DNA from: Patescibacteria group bacterium
Lineage (GTDB): Bacteria; Patescibacteriota; Patescibacteriia; 2-01-FULL-39-33
Direction: 5' to 3'
DNA length: 64,000 nt
NCBI GenBank assembly: GCA_041649575.1
Contig: JBAZMW010000002.1
Location: forward strand, 78,159 to 142,158
Shown: piece by piece, positions 30,207 through 64,000 of the stretch
Numbering within the stretch: position 1 is the first letter of the stretch
Layout: each line of letters opens with the position of its first letter
The notes under the pieces: model-generated
What the model was told of the DNA's origin: nothing
The model's database searches: none
What the model saw: only the letters and a program-made list of their open reading frames with translations
Program-made: the position numbers and the translations under genes

Positions 30207-31385
30207 ATGTTTTTGACGATAGTAATTTTTGTCGCCATTTTATCGCTTTTGGTTTTTGCTCACGAGATAGGCCATTTTTTTACAGCCAGGAAATTTGGTA
30301 TTAGGGTGGATGAGTTTGGTTTTGGCTTGCCGCCGCGAGTCATCGGCCTGGTTTTTTTGTCAGCCAAGAAAAAAATTCGTTTTTTATTCGGGAACCGGGA
30401 ATTAAAAGCTGAAAATGAGACCGAACAGACTGGGACTATTTACTCTCTCAACTTAATACCGGTCGGCGGTTTCGTTAAAATTAAAGGTGAAAACGGCGAA
30501 GCCGCCGGTGATCGTGATAGTTTTGCCAGTAAAGCCATTTGGCGTCGGGTTTCGGTTTTGGCCGCCGGAGTAATCATGAATTTATTTTTATGCGCCTTAA
30601 TATTGATCATTGGCTTTATTATTGGTTTGCCCTCGGCGGTTAGCGGCCAAATGTCCGGAGCCATTGTTTCCGACAACAATATTCAGGTGGTGGAGGTTTT
30701 AAAAGGCACGGCGGCGGAACAAGCTGGCCTCAAGCCTGGCGATATCATCAACGGAGTTGATGGCAAAACTTTTGGCAGTATCGAAGAATTACAAAAATAT
30801 TTGTCAGGCCGAGCCGATCAGCTAATTAGCTTGAAACTGACAAGAAACACCGAGAGTTTGACCAAGGAACTGCTGGTGCAAAAATACCAGGCAGTGACCG
30901 GTATCGGCGTGGCTTTGGTGGAAACGGCCATCGTTCGCTATCCCTGGTACTTGGCGATTTGGCAAGGGATCAAGGCTACCTTTTTTTGGCTGGTGGCAAT
31001 TATTTTAGCTTTTGCCTCCATAATCAAAAATTTAGTTTTGGGCCAGCCGATTGGCATAGAAGTTGCTGGACCGGTGGGTATTGCCGTGATGACCGGCCAG
31101 GCGGCTCGGTTGGGCTTGGTTTATGTTTTGCAGTTTACCGCCCTGCTCTCGCTTAATTTGGCGATTATTAATATTTTACCCTTTCCGGCCTTAGACGGCG
31201 GCCGCATTCTCTTTTTGGTGATTGAGAAAATCAGAGGCCGAGCGGTTAAACAACAATTAGAGAATTTAATCCATAACATCGGTTTTGCCCTGCTCATGCT
31301 CTTGATAGTTTTTGTCACCTACAGAGACATCATCAGGTATGGTGGCAAAATTTTCGGTGTCTTTAAAAATTTAGTGGGGATATAA
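30207..31385 (+). CDS. rseP: RIP metalloprotease (site-2 protease) RseP
   Basis: HEIGHFFTARKFGIRV zinc motif, PDZ domain, and C-terminal LDGG motif. Confidence 0.85.
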   Translation: MFLTIVIFVAILSLLVFAHEIGHFFTARKFGIRVDEFGFGLPPRVIGLVFLSAKKKIRFLFGNRELKAENETEQTGTIYSLNLIPVGGFVKIKGENGEAAGDRDSFASKAIWRRVSVLAAGVIMNLFLCALILIIGFIIGLPSAVSGQMSGAIVSDNNIQVVEVLKGTAAEQAGLKPGDIINGVDGKTFGSIEELQKYLSGRADQLISLKLTRNTESLTKELLVQKYQAVTGIGVALVETAIVRYPWYLAIWQGIKATFFWLVAIILAFASIIKNLVLGQPIGIEVAGPVGIAVMTGQAARLGLVYVLQFTALLSLNLAIINILPFPALDGGRILFLVIEKIRGRAVKQQLENLIHNIGFALLMLLIVFVTYRDIIRYGGKIFGVFKNLVGI

Positions 31386-31389
31386 TTTT

Positions 31390-31850
31390 TTAAAAAAAGA
31401 GATGCCAGTCCATTCTCGTGACGGACTGGCATCAGGCATTACTATAGAGCAAGAGAGATTAACCGGCAGACAGGGCGAGAGGGGATCGTCTCTTTTCCCA
31501 TCTTAATAACTTGTCATCCTCCCCCAGTGTTGCAGTAGTGAGCTCCTCCGGAGTGGTTAACTCCAGTTTAGTTCTAGCGCCCGGAAGGAGAAAGGGGGGC
31601 TCCTGCAAACACATCCGGAAGGATTAGGCTGATATAGCTTTGGCTTTCGGTGCTGTTCTGGTCCAGCCCCGAAATAATCCCAGCCCCGCAATGACGAAGG
31701 AATCAGCCATACTCTGAAAACAAGTTAACTGTCGGGACTAGTCCTTGCCCGGCGCTGGACTAGTCGTTGCGCTGGTGGCAGCTTAACCTCTCTTAGAAAA
31801 GATCTAAAGGGCACTGAAGTAGCTAGTTTCCATCCTAATATAAAATTAAT
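31390..31850 (-). ncRNA. Candidate structured non-coding RNA (~450 nt, G+C-rich, ORF-free), family not identified
   Basis: No ORF of 60 aa or more on either strand. G+C-rich against AT-rich flanks. Ends (minus strand) in an 11-bp perfect hairpin (31401-31433) followed by a T8 run. Confidence 0.4.
31401..31433 (-). terminator. Rho-independent terminator (minus-strand orientation)
   Basis: gatgccagtcc-attctcgtgac-ggactggcatc, with plus-strand A8 immediately upstream (a T-run on the minus strand). Confidence 0.65.
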
Positions 31851-31853
31851 TAT

Positions 31854-32225
31854 TTGGCAAATATGAAAATAACCGTCTTCAATAATTTTGATCCGGTCCT
31901 GGTGCTACGTCGTAGCGGTTATGGCTTAATGACCAACAGAAAAACTGGCGAACAAAGCTTTGTTCGCCGCCTGGGCAACAATTCTTATCCGCGTTTTCAC
32001 GCCTATCTTAAAGATGGTTTTATTAATCTGCATTTAGACCAGAAGCAACCCAGCTACAGCGGCGTTAAGGCGCATAGTGGTGAATATGAGGGAGAGGTGA
32101 TAACCAAAGAAGCAAACAGAATCAAAGAAGTAATAAATTTTTTAAAAACCGAAGACAGACCGACATCAGAGCGTGAAATTGCCGCACCAGCCAAGGGTTT
32201 TTGGTCTAAATTTTTTGGGGATTAG
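31854..32225 (+). CDS. Hypothetical protein (123 aa)
   Basis: ORF only; no recognisable motif. The true start may be the second ATG (31863). Confidence 0.3.
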   Translation: MANMKITVFNNFDPVLVLRRSGYGLMTNRKTGEQSFVRRLGNNSYPRFHAYLKDGFINLHLDQKQPSYSGVKAHSGEYEGEVITKEANRIKEVINFLKTEDRPTSEREIAAPAKGFWSKFFGD

Positions 32226-38792: not shown

Positions 38793-40865
<2,073 letters not shown>

Positions 40866-41009
40866 TTAATGGAGATGAATTTTACTAAATTATTTTATCA
40901 TATTTTAAACTTTTTGACAATAAAAATCTGGGTCTATTTTTGGCCATTTTTCTTTTTTAATTTGGTATTCTTATATACACAGATGAATTTTTTGTGTTAT
41001 AATTTAATC

Positions 41010-41843
41010 ATGATTAAATCGGCAGACAACTTGACTGATCGCCAGCTGAAATTAAGTTATTGGTATATCACCAACAAGCTGCTTTTAAGAAAATGGCTTA
41101 AAATTTTTCTGATTGTTTTATCGGTCATTTTCTGGCTTTTTGTCCTGTGGCAGTTGATTTTTTTGGCCATCAATTATAGCCAGGAAGATTATCAAACCAG
41201 GCGGTTGATTTTTGGTGGTAATCCCAATTTATTGCCACTGGACAGCTTAAAGCCGGCTCCACTTCAGACGTCAGTCGTTCAAGCGCTAGGCAATGAGAGT
41301 AATGGCTATGACTTTTTTGTTCAGGTGGCCAACAACAACAAGGACTGGCTGTCAACTTTCGACTACCAATTTGTCGCTCCGGATGGTGGTGGCCAGCTCA
41401 AATCGGGCTTTGTTTTACCGGGAGAAACCAAGTACTTAATGGCTTTGGGCGTCAAAAGTTCGGCGGTTCAGTTTCAGCTAGCTAACCAAAAATGGAGACG
41501 GGTCAGCGATATCAGCGGTCTCTATGGTGATCGTTATAATTTTTTAATTGAGAACGATAAATTTGTCGCCGGTCAAGCGGTTGGTGATCCCGGCAAACTG
41601 ACCTTTGAGCTAACCAATAAATCAGCCTTTAGTTATTGGGAGGTGGGCATAACTGCTGTTTTATCCAACGGCGGCAATATCGTTTCGGTCAATTATCTCA
41701 CTTTAAATCAGGTTAAATCCGGAGAGAAGAGGTTGGTTGAGCTTTTATGGAACAATCCCTTGCCTCGAGTCGACAGCTTTGAAATTGTTCCCGAAGTGAA
41801 TATCTTTGACGACAACAATATTATGCCGGTTGACAGTCTTTAA
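41010..41843 (+). CDS. Hypothetical membrane-anchored/secreted protein (start placed at MIKSADNL; the ORF-track 5' extension is probably not translated)
   Basis: TGTTATAAT extended -10 at 40994-41002 lies 7 nt upstream of this ATG. Signal-anchor helix follows. Confidence 0.4.
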   Translation: MIKSADNLTDRQLKLSYWYITNKLLLRKWLKIFLIVLSVIFWLFVLWQLIFLAINYSQEDYQTRRLIFGGNPNLLPLDSLKPAPLQTSVVQALGNESNGYDFFVQVANNNKDWLSTFDYQFVAPDGGGQLKSGFVLPGETKYLMALGVKSSAVQFQLANQKWRRVSDISGLYGDRYNFLIENDKFVAGQAVGDPGKLTFELTNKSAFSYWEVGITAVLSNGGNIVSVNYLTLNQVKSGEKRLVELLWNNPLPRVDSFEIVPEVNIFDDNNIMPVDSL

Positions 41844-51224: not shown

Positions 51225-51299
51225 GCCGGGTTCGTCTAGTGGCTAGGACGCATCCCTCTCACGGATGAAACACGAGTTCGATTCTCGTACTCGGTACCA
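51225..51299 (+). tRNA. tRNA-Glu (anticodon CUC), CCA encoded
   Basis: Cloverleaf: acceptor gccgggt/actcggt (two G-U pairs), D stem gtct/ggac, anticodon stem catcc/ggatg with loop ctCTCac, T arm acgag-ttcgatt-ctcgt, then a-cca. Confidence 0.8.
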
Positions 51300-58573: not shown

Positions 58574-58602
58574 GATATTTAGTTTGACGTTTTTACTAAA
58601 TG
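58574..58602 (+). promoter_or_regulatory. Sigma70-like promoter TTGACG-N17-TATTAT driving the candidate sRNA
   Basis: ttgacg (58574-58579), 17-nt spacer, tattat (58597-58602). Confidence 0.55.
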
Positions 58603-58608
58603 GTGATA

Positions 58609-58880
58609 TTATAAAAATGCACCTAGTTTTTGGGAATGGGAGGAGACAAAGAGAGCCCAAGTTGGTGGTGGCGAAGGAGGGGAAAACACACTGACCTTGT
58701 CGGTGTGGGATCAACCCGCATTTCCTGGCGGAAGAGGAGAACAGCGGTATGGTTCGCGAACGCCCACCCTGATCAAATTATCGATTCTACATAACAGGTA
58801 GTCGCTGTTGATACGATTCGGGTGCGTCAAAGCTCGGGGCATGGCTTAACGGTCGTGCCCCGGGCTCTCTATTTTTTAAT
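58609..58880 (+). ncRNA. Candidate small structured RNA (~270 nt, G+C-rich, no ORF) with its own promoter and terminator; family unassigned
   Basis: Only tiny ORFs (19 aa or less). G+C-rich. Ends in hairpin cggggca...tgccccg plus a T6 run, abutting the prmC stop on the other strand. Confidence 0.45.
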
Positions 58881-62082: not shown

Positions 62083-62108
62083 TTCCAAGGTACTTGTTGC
62101 TTGGCAAC

Positions 62109-63758
62109 TCAGCCGGGCATGTTTAGCCAATCGATGCCGATGTCCCGGCCATCGCCAGCCGTGCCGATACAAGGTGAGCCGGCATCAAGATGCCAGTCCT
62201 CGGTGAGCAACGGGTCGGCGAAGACGAGGTTGATCACGTCGACCGTCCAAGGGTTTCTCTCGCACGTTGCCAACGTGTCGTAGTTCCAGACGCAGTTGGG
62301 CCCAACTGTGTAGTAGCCGTTGCTGCAATGAAACGTTGTTTCGCAGCCAGTGACTACCGAGTCGAAAACCGCGACACTATCTTCATTGTACGCGGCTATG
62401 CCTCGCGTCGACCCGACGTGGGGCACCAAGAAGAAGCGTGGACCGACTACGACACAGTGATGGACCGATAAGCCGCTCGCGTAGTTGACCTCTAGTGGCG
62501 AGTTACTCTCGCTGGCGACTACCACGTTTCTCATAGTTAGTGCTACGCCACCTTCGCAGGCAACCGCCGCGTCGCTGTAGTACAGGTTGCGTTTGCCAGG
62601 GCCATTGTGGATGCTGATGTTGTACAACCACATCGTCCAGTCGCCTTTGGCCACCGAAACCGATTTGCCCAGATTGGCCGTGGCTTCGGCCTGGCTCGTG
62701 GGGTATGACCAGGGCGCGGTGTAGATCACATGTGGCCGGTTTGGGTTGTTATCCACGATCCGGCTCTTATCGGGCCCCAATCCAGAAATGCTGATCGTTT
62801 TGGGGTTGGGATAATAGGGGATTGTGAATCCCTCATAGTCGCCCTCGCCCAAGGTGATGTCCACCGGCGTCTCGCACGCGTCGATCGCATCCTGAATTGT
62901 CAGGTACTGCTGGCCGTTCGCGGTGACCGGCGGCTTCTCGTATCCGAACGTGATGTCCAGGTCGAGTTCGCCGTAGATGTCCACTGGCGTGTAGTCGTAG
63001 CACAGGCCACCACTGAAACGGAACGAGCCGGCGAAGTCCAGCTCGGCCACGACCAGGGGCAAAGCCGACTGATAGATGTCGCCGTTATCGTCGGTCGCCA
63101 CCAGCGTCCCGCCCTGGAAGTCGAGCGGTAAACTGAAGCCAAAATCCACTCCGTTTGCTCCTAGCGCCCAGCACCCAGGCCATTCAGTCCCTTCAGCCGT
63201 AACCAGTTTAGCACCACCACGGCCGAAGCTATAATCGCCAGGTAAACCGTTGACGCCGAATCGGAAGTAGTATGTGGGCAGGAAGTCCATTTCCACTTCC
63301 AGGTTTGTGGTCTGTCCGGCGGCGATACTCGCGGCTGTCTCCCCCCAGAAGAGTGGTGCCTTATCCGCGTCCATGATGTACACGGATGCTTCATAGTCAC
63401 CCGGCCAGATGTCTTTGGCCGTTCCGTCGAACACGCCGTCGATGATCGGGAATTCGAGAAAACGGCTGTGGTCGACTGAACCCCCAGCCTTACCCATACC
63501 GGTTCCCGCTTCCCAGAGATGGACCTGAATCCAGCGAGCTCTCGACTTGAAGGCGTCACCGATCGCAATCAACTCTGGATAGGTGAGCGATTTCTCGCCC
63601 GATGCCGCGTACAGGTTACCGTGGATCCGGATGCTACCGGTCTGTGGCTGATTCGGGTCCGGCGGTTTCGGCGTGTCTTGCGCCGGACAGCCCGCGAACA
63701 GAAATGCCGCCAACACCGTCAGCACGGCCAACGTCATACCATTCATCATCTTACTCAT
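62109..63758 (-). CDS. Secreted lipoprotein with right-handed parallel beta-helix (pectin-lyase-like) C-terminal domain; G+C-rich, probably horizontally acquired (start placed at MSKMMNGM with GGAGGA RBS)
   Basis: Lipobox LFAGC after the signal peptide. Repeated NxxxxG/VxxC-type coils in the C-terminal half. G+C content clearly above genome background. Confidence 0.5.
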   Translation of the reverse strand: MSKMMNGMTLAVLTVLAAFLFAGCPAQDTPKPPDPNQPQTGSIRIHGNLYAASGEKSLTYPELIAIGDAFKSRARWIQVHLWEAGTGMGKAGGSVDHSRFLEFPIIDGVFDGTAKDIWPGDYEASVYIMDADKAPLFWGETAASIAAGQTTNLEVEMDFLPTYYFRFGVNGLPGDYSFGRGGAKLVTAEGTEWPGCWALGANGVDFGFSLPLDFQGGTLVATDDNGDIYQSALPLVVAELDFAGSFRFSGGLCYDYTPVDIYGELDLDITFGYEKPPVTANGQQYLTIQDAIDACETPVDITLGEGDYEGFTIPYYPNPKTISISGLGPDKSRIVDNNPNRPHVIYTAPWSYPTSQAEATANLGKSVSVAKGDWTMWLYNISIHNGPGKRNLYYSDAAVACEGGVALTMRNVVVASESNSPLEVNYASGLSVHHCVVVGPRFFLVPHVGSTRGIAAYNEDSVAVFDSVVTGCETTFHCSNGYYTVGPNCVWNYDTLATCERNPWTVDVINLVFADPLLTEDWHLDAGSPCIGTAGDGRDIGIDWLNMPG

Positions 63759-64000
63759 CTCGTGTTCCTCCTCGGTTTTGCTCTTTACCAGACATAGTAA
63801 ATAGCGAATCACGCCCTGTGCGTGTTCGCTGTTGTTGCCAAATTCTCAAGGTGCAACTAATTATAATATCATATTTATTTATTTTTGTCAATAGATGTTA
63901 AAAAATAATCATTTTTTTGTTTTATTTTAGCTATTTTATTTATTTTTATTATATTAATTACTTAAAATGTTGACAGATATTTTTTAATTTGTTAGAATTT

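Follow-up and report, generated by a model that had tools for sequence, protein, structure and literature searches.

A candidate antisense-oriented noncoding RNA gene, apparently inserted between rseP and its conserved neighbor, in a Patescibacteria genome

Little is known of the noncoding RNAs (ncRNAs) of the Candidate Phyla Radiation (CPR), and beyond rRNA, tRNA, diverged RNase P RNAs and group I introns we found no report of them in the literature searched. RNase P RNAs of CPR bacteria often fall below Rfam cut-offs (PMC8172020), and some group I introns of Patescibacteria escape both RF00028 and ARAGORN (PMC13011429). The element considered here is a 477-nt gap between rseP and a conserved gene for a 120-aa protein, referred to below as the island. 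It lies in a 64,000-nt stretch of contig JBAZMW010000002.1 (assembly GCA_041649575.1, positions 78,159 to 142,158), which is called the window throughout; the source assembly is that of an uncultured Patescibacteria genome, ENA ERZ27247363, in which the contig measures 235 kb. Several described systems resemble the island in part. Cis-antisense transcripts of the “excludon” type likewise run antisense between the genes of an operon and could in principle interfere with read-through or trigger duplex cleavage, but the putative island transcript overlaps neither coding sequence and its ~350-nt G+C-rich structured body exceeds what antisense action needs. Type A RNase P RNA (RF00010) resembles it in having ~345 nt inside a long terminal helix, in being encoded by a stand-alone gene with a terminator, and in a G+C content above that of the genome. 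On the other hand, the island matches no covariance model, lacks CR-I and CR-V, offers no P4 pseudoknot that can be built, and its locus is missing in close relatives. Patescibacterial group I introns (PMC13011429) are of comparable size and share short resemblances to the P/Q/R/S core, but in the island these elements stand in the wrong order, P8 is missing, no tRNA, rRNA or coding-sequence exons flank the element, and neither RF00028 nor ARAGORN gives a match. Finally, OLE, GOLLD, ROOL, HEARO and raiA are, as the island RNA would be, large and apparently multi-helix ncRNAs, and the island too comes from an uncultured lineage; they are mostly bigger, however, and it is their wide conservation and covariation that defines them; the island has neither.

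Our reading of the island, which we put forward tentatively, is that it is an orphan, independently expressed minus-strand ncRNA gene of ~435 nt that arrived as a lineage-specific insertion. This reading is carried by the terminator, by the insertion status of the island, by the lack of a coding signal, and by a precedent for RNA genes at exactly this site in relatives. The genes around the island follow the order holB, BNR-repeat protein, frr, rseP (30207–31385), 120-aa gene, proS, mreB and mreC, all on the plus strand. For comparison, 177 loci (~1.2 Mb) around relatives of RseP were collected, from 80 genome and 80 metagenome loci plus 12 look-ups in ENA, Logan and JGI assemblies; the relatives at the RseP locus are labelled Buchananbacteria or Falkowbacteria. 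Both scans of the large collections used RseP as the query, so homologues of the island were sought there in syntenic loci. Searches with blastn, nhmmer and tblastx found nothing similar to the island in the 177 RseP loci, and there was no match to it in phage collections, in plasmid collections or in the rest of the window. The tight spacing of rseP and the 120-aa homologue in ~30 loci (Table 1), among them most of the closest relatives, argues that the island is an insertion in the lineage of the window, and two of the loci with a tight junction share the whole ten-gene synteny with it. By these comparisons, the insertion is lineage-specific. The 120-aa gene itself (31863–32225, plus strand) adjoins rseP in ~45 of the collected loci and has no Pfam or NCBIfam match. 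Its start is the ATG at 31863, which gives the 120-aa product on record, and the TTG at 31854 used in the ORF (open reading frame) list is probably wrong.

The signals that delimit the putative transcription unit are found at the two ends of the island. Next to rseP is the 11-bp hairpin that the earlier note had assigned to a minus-strand transcript. Its arms (31401–31411 and 31423–31433) are indeed 100% complementary, can be extended to 12–13 pairs and are followed by a T-run. With 13 pairs, 7 of them G-C, and the U-tract UCUUUUUUU directly after the stem, the structure is a very strong Rho-independent terminator. When the hairpin at 31401–31433 is read on its plus-strand side, there is no U-tract. 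At the other end, the consensus scan gave a candidate minus-strand promoter whose -35 element and the opposite-strand start codon of the 120-aa gene are 2 nt apart (CAT-AT-TTGCCA), as well as an alternative minus-strand candidate, TTCATA-19-TATATT, at 31867–31837. No promoter was predicted on the plus strand of the island, which suggests that the 120-aa gene, and possibly proS, is reached by read-through from rseP.

Table 1. Window coordinates of the island and of the features recognized or predicted within it.
Feature	Position	Strand	Basis and remarks
Island between rseP and the conserved 120-aa gene	31386..31862	unassigned (.)	rseP stop 31385, ATG 31863; junction 0–46 nt in ~30 relatives
Rho-independent terminator, 12–13 bp stem, 7–9 nt loop, then UCUUUUUUU	31392..31433	-	Inverted repeat I6; pair probability 1.00; begins 16 nt from rseP stop codon
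Candidate sigma-70-type promoter, TTGCCA-17-TAGGAT	31832..31860	-	Consensus scan; 9/12 matches; predicted transcription start ~31825–31830
Closing helix P1, 5' arm AAGAGAGGUUAA	31783..31794	-	Inverted repeat I1; 11 bp, mean pair probability 0.95
Closing helix P1, 3' arm UUAAUCUCUCUU	31451..31462	-	Inverted repeat and fold prediction
Predicted hairpin from both copies of palindrome GACUAGUC; 9-bp stem, 12-nt loop AGCGCCGGGCAA	31736..31765	-	Repeats I9 and D1; pair probability 0.99
Second nested helix, 5' arm UAACUUGUU, pairs with 31507–31515	31719..31727	-	9 bp, mean probability 0.94
Second nested helix, 3' arm GACAAGUUA	31507..31515	-	Fold prediction
Predicted side domain closed by GGCUGA/UCAGCC, holds duplicated CGGGGCUGG	31626..31708	-	Direct repeat D2; closing stem 0.70; inner hairpin 0.97–0.99
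Third nested domain, closed by AUCCUUCC/GGGAGGAU (8 bp)	31516..31624	-	Fold prediction; probabilities 0.73–0.98

Most of what the earlier note had described of the island as a piece of DNA holds, with one exception. There is no ORF of 60 aa or more on either strand, the longest inside the island being 51 aa, and the gap is one of the longest intergenic stretches of the window and probably, as had been claimed, the longest: a crude gene map shows two larger gaps, but these arise artificially from ORF calls that overlap. A “sharply higher” G+C content, by contrast, was an overstatement. The 360-nt core has a G+C content of 0.518 against a window mean of 0.435 (standard deviation 0.052), ~6% of windows of the same size match or exceed it, and coding regions reach 0.62. 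The palindrome pair is present as GGACTAGTCC at 31735–31744 and a one-mismatch copy, GGACTAGTCG, at 31757–31766, and these are the sole two matches in the window; the palindrome GACTAGTC thus has two copies in the island, as does GCGCTGG (31752 and 31769). The island also contains short internal duplications, D1 to D3, of which D1 is a 14-nt direct repeat with 13 of 14 positions identical.

The minus-strand RNA is predicted to fold as a rod made up of three nested long-range helices (11, 9 and 8 bp) and side hairpins, with most pair probabilities above 0.9; for the nested helices they are 0.94 or higher, with a range of 0.73–0.98 across the elements of the third domain. In the closing helix P1, positions 31793–31783 would pair with 31462–31452. 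The inner stems of the third nested domain are predicted to be GUGU/ACAC, UGCAG/CUGCA and GAGC/GCUC, below an apical hairpin GGAGU-UAACC-ACUCC. The minimum free energy (MFE) z-score of the core is -2.6 for the minus strand and -2.4 for the plus strand. For 34 segments of the same length from the window the mean was -0.29 (standard deviation 1.16), and 3% of them reached -2.5 or lower. The predicted folding energy of the core thus appears to be above chance, which is suggestive but not decisive. The z-scores and G-U counts of the two strands are alike. Thermodynamics thus neither proves a structure nor assigns a strand, and we assign the element to the minus strand because of the U-tract, the position of the promoter and the comparative picture. 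The proposal in the earlier note of a large structured RNA can be kept in part. The island has the hallmarks of a gene, since it ends in a strong terminator, starts near a promoter-like site, gives no coding signal and is predicted to form a nested long-range fold. Such an RNA is not demonstrated, however: no homologue was found in the syntenic loci, phages or plasmids searched, and the thermodynamic support is borderline.

The precedent in relatives comes from loci that carry ORF-free minus-strand cargo at the same junction (L001/L081, L008 and L170 of the collection). In three of them we recognized RNA genes of ~300–360 nt between rseP and the 120-aa gene, all on the minus strand: L001 5674–5270, L008 5593–5165 and L170 4272–3920, in locus coordinates. 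Their promoters, TTGACA-17-TATACT, TTGACA-17-TATAAA and TTGACT-17-TATCAT in the same order, lie directly against the 120-aa gene's start codon; in all three, the 5' arm of the closing helix is of the GAGG type and there is a U-run or terminator. L001 and L008 have the blocks GGGAAUAUYGGGAUUAG, GAUGUGGC and UCCCAAGGGU in common despite RseP proteins that are less than 60% identical, and the conserved motifs of the family include GCCUAA-hairpin-GAAAU. Their global alignment has a z-score of 4.4, and RNAalifold found compensatory changes in 12 of 43 predicted pairs. L170 shares the block GGCCUAAA-hairpin-UGAAAUGGC and the 3' motif CCC...CCCRAGGG, and its k-mer chain against L008 has a z-score of 2.8. 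No match to the three cargo sequences was found in Rfam 15, and a scan of viral contigs with the family motif returned only chance matches in coding sequence. From these alignments, the cargo of L001, L008 and L170 makes a credible case for a small, previously undescribed RNA family.

The island resembles this family in its location, size and promoter-proximal end. It occupies the same intergenic site in the same antisense orientation and is of similar size (477 nt, against 366–434 nt of cargo in the relatives); the promoter abuts the ATG of the 120-aa gene, and an intrinsic terminator or U-run is found on the side of rseP. In all of them the closing helix combines a purine-rich 5' arm of the GAGG type with a 3' arm of the CCUC type, as seen in AAGAGAGGUUAA/UUAAUCUCUCUU of the island, UAGAGAGGU/ACCUCUCUA of L008, GAGGUUAG/CUAACCUC of L170 and AGAGGGAUCAG/CUGAUCCCCUCU of L001, and the 9-mer AGAGAGGUU in the 5' closing arm of the island is identical in the L008 RNA. 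The first 75 nt of the island unit (promoter, leader and 5' arm of the closing helix) align with L001 at a score that 6 of 1000 shuffles equal, and the ~35-nt leader can be aligned with that of L001 (p ~0.006). The family promoters, however, are consensus-like, whereas that of the island is much weaker. The motifs GGGAAUAUYGGGAUUAG, GCCUAA-hairpin-GAAAU, GAUGUGGC and UCCCAAGGGU were searched for in the island and are absent; there are only loose look-alikes, such as GCGGGGCUGGGAUUAU at 31689–31674. Searches with nhmmer and the family profiles, including one with --max against the island alone, returned nothing. A collinear chain of anchors made by hand between island and family (GGGAUUA, UCCGGGC, GAUCCCCUCU) proved no better than that obtained with shuffled sequence or the opposite strand, and was rejected. 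The alignments are thus compatible with the island transcription unit and the family sharing ancestry at the promoter-proximal end, as they may, with a body that is either unrelated or diverged beyond recognition.

The junction between rseP and the 120-aa gene is variable well beyond these RNA genes, and all cargo inserted there in relatives is on the minus strand. A family of small proteins is encoded antisense at the junction in five loci (minus strand; L009 5277–5486, L095 1858–2073, L088 4249–4440, L104 4200–4679 and L019 1330–1785). Its members have the motif M-x-Q-[RK]-C-K-x-F ... DGK-x-VI ... L-x-YED and are 63–71 aa long, or ~150–160 aa in two of the loci; they have their own promoter and terminator and no Pfam match. 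Three further loci (L023 5226–6259, L125 4344–5343 and L143 4181–5182) carry a minus-strand cassette of three ~100–130-aa proteins starting with MI(T/D)T.DQ, and in L176, from a second organism in the same sample as the window, a 115-aa protein is encoded at 1979–2326 on the minus strand. Across the loci compared, the junction behaves as an insertion hot spot.

Several observations weigh against an expressed RNA gene. The organism is a singleton, its closest RseP being ~60% identical among 5.8 billion proteins, and no homologue of the island was found among the 177 syntenic loci, the phages, the plasmids or the rest of the window; hence there is neither conservation nor covariation to draw on. 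The earlier note had named a lack of conservation in homologous loci as counting against a structured RNA, and conservation is lacking in the sense that relatives are without the island entirely. The island promoter is a weak match (9/12, with TAGGAT as the -10 element), both strands fold equally well with an equal number of G-U pairs, and the similarity of the island body to the family stays within that of shuffles and near the opposite-strand score in global alignment and k-mer chaining. The duplications D1–D3 may equally mark neutral, slippage-prone DNA. The main rival, possible though on balance doubtful, is that the island is the decaying, non-functional remnant of minus-strand cargo that once occupied this junction, a degenerate copy of either an L001/L008-type RNA gene or a small-protein gene, in which only the promoter-proximal end and the terminator are still recognizable and any structure is incidental. 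Consistent with decay, the junction cargo differs by lineage, from small proteins (L009, L095, L088, L104 and L019) and three ~100-aa genes (L023, L125 and L143) to the 115-aa gene of L176 and the RNA genes of L001, L008 and L170. The resemblance to L001 is limited to the 5' end of the island and the family motifs are absent, the promoter looks degraded next to the TTGACA-17-TATACT and TTGACA-17-TATAAA of relatives, the island has the internal duplications just mentioned, and the fold z-score is merely borderline. Yet Patescibacteria genomes are compact and the window is otherwise tightly packed, and an intact, near-perfect terminator together with three long, perfect nested helices would be unlikely to last under neutral decay. 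In addition, decay in A+T-rich genomes usually lowers the G+C content of DNA, and that of the island exceeds the genome mean. A role of the plus strand, as a structured intercistronic spacer or leader in the rseP-120-aa gene-proS mRNA that acts in processing, stability or regulation and in which the hairpin at 31401–31433 is an mRNA 3'-end or processing structure, seems quite improbable. The plus strand is probably transcribed, since no promoter of its own is predicted for the 120-aa gene; its fold is as stable as that of the minus strand (z-score -2.4), and only in this reading do the two CCGGAAGG hairpins carry GGAA (GNRA-type) tetraloops. Nevertheless, no riboswitch, T-box or leader family matched either strand, the U-tract of the hairpin is on the minus-strand side only, the junction cargo of relatives is all on the minus strand, including RNA genes with clear promoters, and relatives express the same downstream genes without a spacer.

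The remaining alternatives are weaker still. A highly diverged copy of a known RNA (RNase P RNA, tmRNA (transfer-messenger RNA) or a tRNA-embedded group I intron) that the Rfam models missed is very unlikely, although the 345 nt between the arms of the closing helix and the length of that helix recall RNase P RNA and although, as cited at the outset, CPR RNase P RNAs below threshold and Patescibacteria introns missed by RF00028 and ARAGORN are both documented. A 701-nt query (31250–31950, both strands) had no match in Rfam 15 at E-values up to 10, and in the whole window Rfam at the gathering score found only a tRNA-Glu at 51225, with no RNase P, tmRNA, group I or T-box at E-values up to 1. 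No cis-regulatory family was significant among the T-box and riboswitch models on the plus strand, and the OLE, GOLLD, ROOL, HEARO and raiA covariance models did not match the island. ARAGORN found neither tRNA nor tmRNA in the island (including with -m) and no intron-containing tRNA (-i) at default stringency; its low-threshold calls there are not credible. Rfam and ARAGORN thus bear out the exclusion by eye of RNase P, tmRNA and T-box that preceded this work. With both strands read, the RNase P elements CR-I (GGAAAGUCCGG) and CR-V (ACAGAAxCCGGCUUA) are absent. There is only GCCGGUUAAUC near the 3' arm, a look-alike that itself lies in the closing helix, and when it was tried by eye along with AGUCCGGGC in L001 and GAUGAUGAGACUGU in L008, the element order of RNase P was not obtained. 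A tRNA-like reading of 31708–31626 was dropped as well, since the 7-bp “acceptor” GGCUGAU/AUCAGCC comes without an anticodon stem or T-arm. The tmRNA-like tag pointed out earlier does exist on the plus strand at 31763–31786 (GTC GTT GCG CTG GTG GCA GCT TAA, VVALVAA-stop), but it is most likely a coincidence because the ~75 nt to the next gene leave no room for 3' pseudoknots and a T-arm. On the minus strand there are short resemblances to what we take to be the group I elements P, Q, R and S (AUUGCGGG, AUCAGC, CAACGACUAG and AAG..UAGUCC); that reading was rejected, since these look-alikes run R, S, P, Q and only 12 nt lie between R and S, too few to accommodate P8, an arrangement incompatible with the topology of a group I core even if circularly permuted. 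Moreover, an essential RNA at a fixed site would not be expected to be missing from close relatives, as the island is. That the island encodes a small minus-strand protein, from the 51-aa ORF at 31459–31614 or a 28-aa ORF starting at 31709, is extremely unlikely even though relatives have the MxQ[RK]CKxF...YED family (63–71 aa) in the same place, on the same strand and in gaps of equal size. Neither ORF is preceded by a Shine-Dalgarno sequence, gene callers put no gene in the island, Pfam matched none of its open frames, and tblastx found no similarity to the cargo proteins of relatives, small proteins included. An exhaustive phmmer search with the 51-aa ORF against 1.84 billion representatives gave just four weak, multi-stretch matches (E-values of 1e-5 or weaker) to proteins of 452–1506 aa. 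We consider it just as improbable that the island acts at the level of DNA, with the two GGACTAGTC palindromes, 22 bp apart from start to start and ~100–130 bp upstream of the 120-aa gene, serving as operators for a dimeric regulator. The palindromes are spaced by about two helical turns, their motif is found in this region only, and a 14-nt direct repeat (13/14) exceeds what the hairpin needs. But there is no regulator gene nearby and no further copy of the palindrome in 64 kb, 8 of 100 shuffles also give two matches when one mismatch is allowed, and the terminator and the remaining 400 nt would be left unexplained.

If the island is an expressed antisense-oriented RNA gene, as we tentatively propose, transcription would start at ~31825–31830 from the weak promoter abutting the start codon of the 120-aa gene, run antisense to the direction from rseP through the 120-aa gene to proS, and end at the strong terminator at 31433–31392. 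We infer that this promoter is active and that the minus-strand RNA functions in its predicted form, a rod with three nested long-range helices and side hairpins. An mRNA that reads through from rseP spans the island, so that the minus-strand RNA would be perfectly complementary to its intercistronic part, and this complementarity makes cis-antisense control the most economical function. Such control could work by transcriptional interference or by duplex-dependent cleavage, with the effect that the 120-aa gene, proS and mreB, all downstream, would no longer be coupled to rseP. A role in trans or in binding protein is equally conceivable. We also considered a broader proposal, that the island and the RNA genes of L001, L008 and L170 form a single fast-evolving class of antisense-oriented ncRNA genes of 300–440 nt in the Buchananbacteria/Falkowbacteria-related clade, which control rseP read-through or scaffold proteins. 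Its genes would be inserted in the conserved frr-rseP-120-aa gene-proS-mreB cluster, and across the deepest splits only the promoter, leader and terminal helix would be conserved. We regard this proposal as speculative and rather unlikely.

Elsewhere in the window, a second orphan unit that resembles an RNA gene lies between convergent genes at 58584–58877 on the plus strand. A promoter, TTGACG-17-TATTAT (58584–58612), is followed there by ~220 G+C-rich nucleotides and then by a terminator (58831–58877) that has a hairpin of 16 bp and a U-run. With an MFE z-score of -3.3, the unit folds better than every shuffle. It gave no Rfam match at E-values up to 10 and resembles neither the island nor any of the loci. 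A minus-strand ORF of 567 aa (62109–63812) occupies the part of the window with the highest G+C content (62100–63850; up to 0.62, window mean 0.435), which may be foreign DNA. A 310-nt stretch of very low G+C content (0.28) at 40860–41169 adjoins the end of the minus-strand ORF 38793–40859 and is probably a divergent promoter region.

Taken on its own, the island is a modest finding: a genuine, reasonably gene-like orphan element that is not any known RNA. Should it be a decaying remnant, it would be ordinary, and its main use would be as a reminder that a structured RNA is not established by a G+C-rich gap, a terminator and a good fold of a single sequence. An expressed island would mean that a genome with little room for non-essentials has one more large, lineage-specific RNA. 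The variable site for antisense cargo and the three-member RNA family are more solid results than the island itself. Together, the island and the family suggest that antisense cargo is inserted recurrently at one site within a core housekeeping operon, and such recurrent cargo would give a concrete, testable case of RNA-level regulation in organisms where protein regulators are few.

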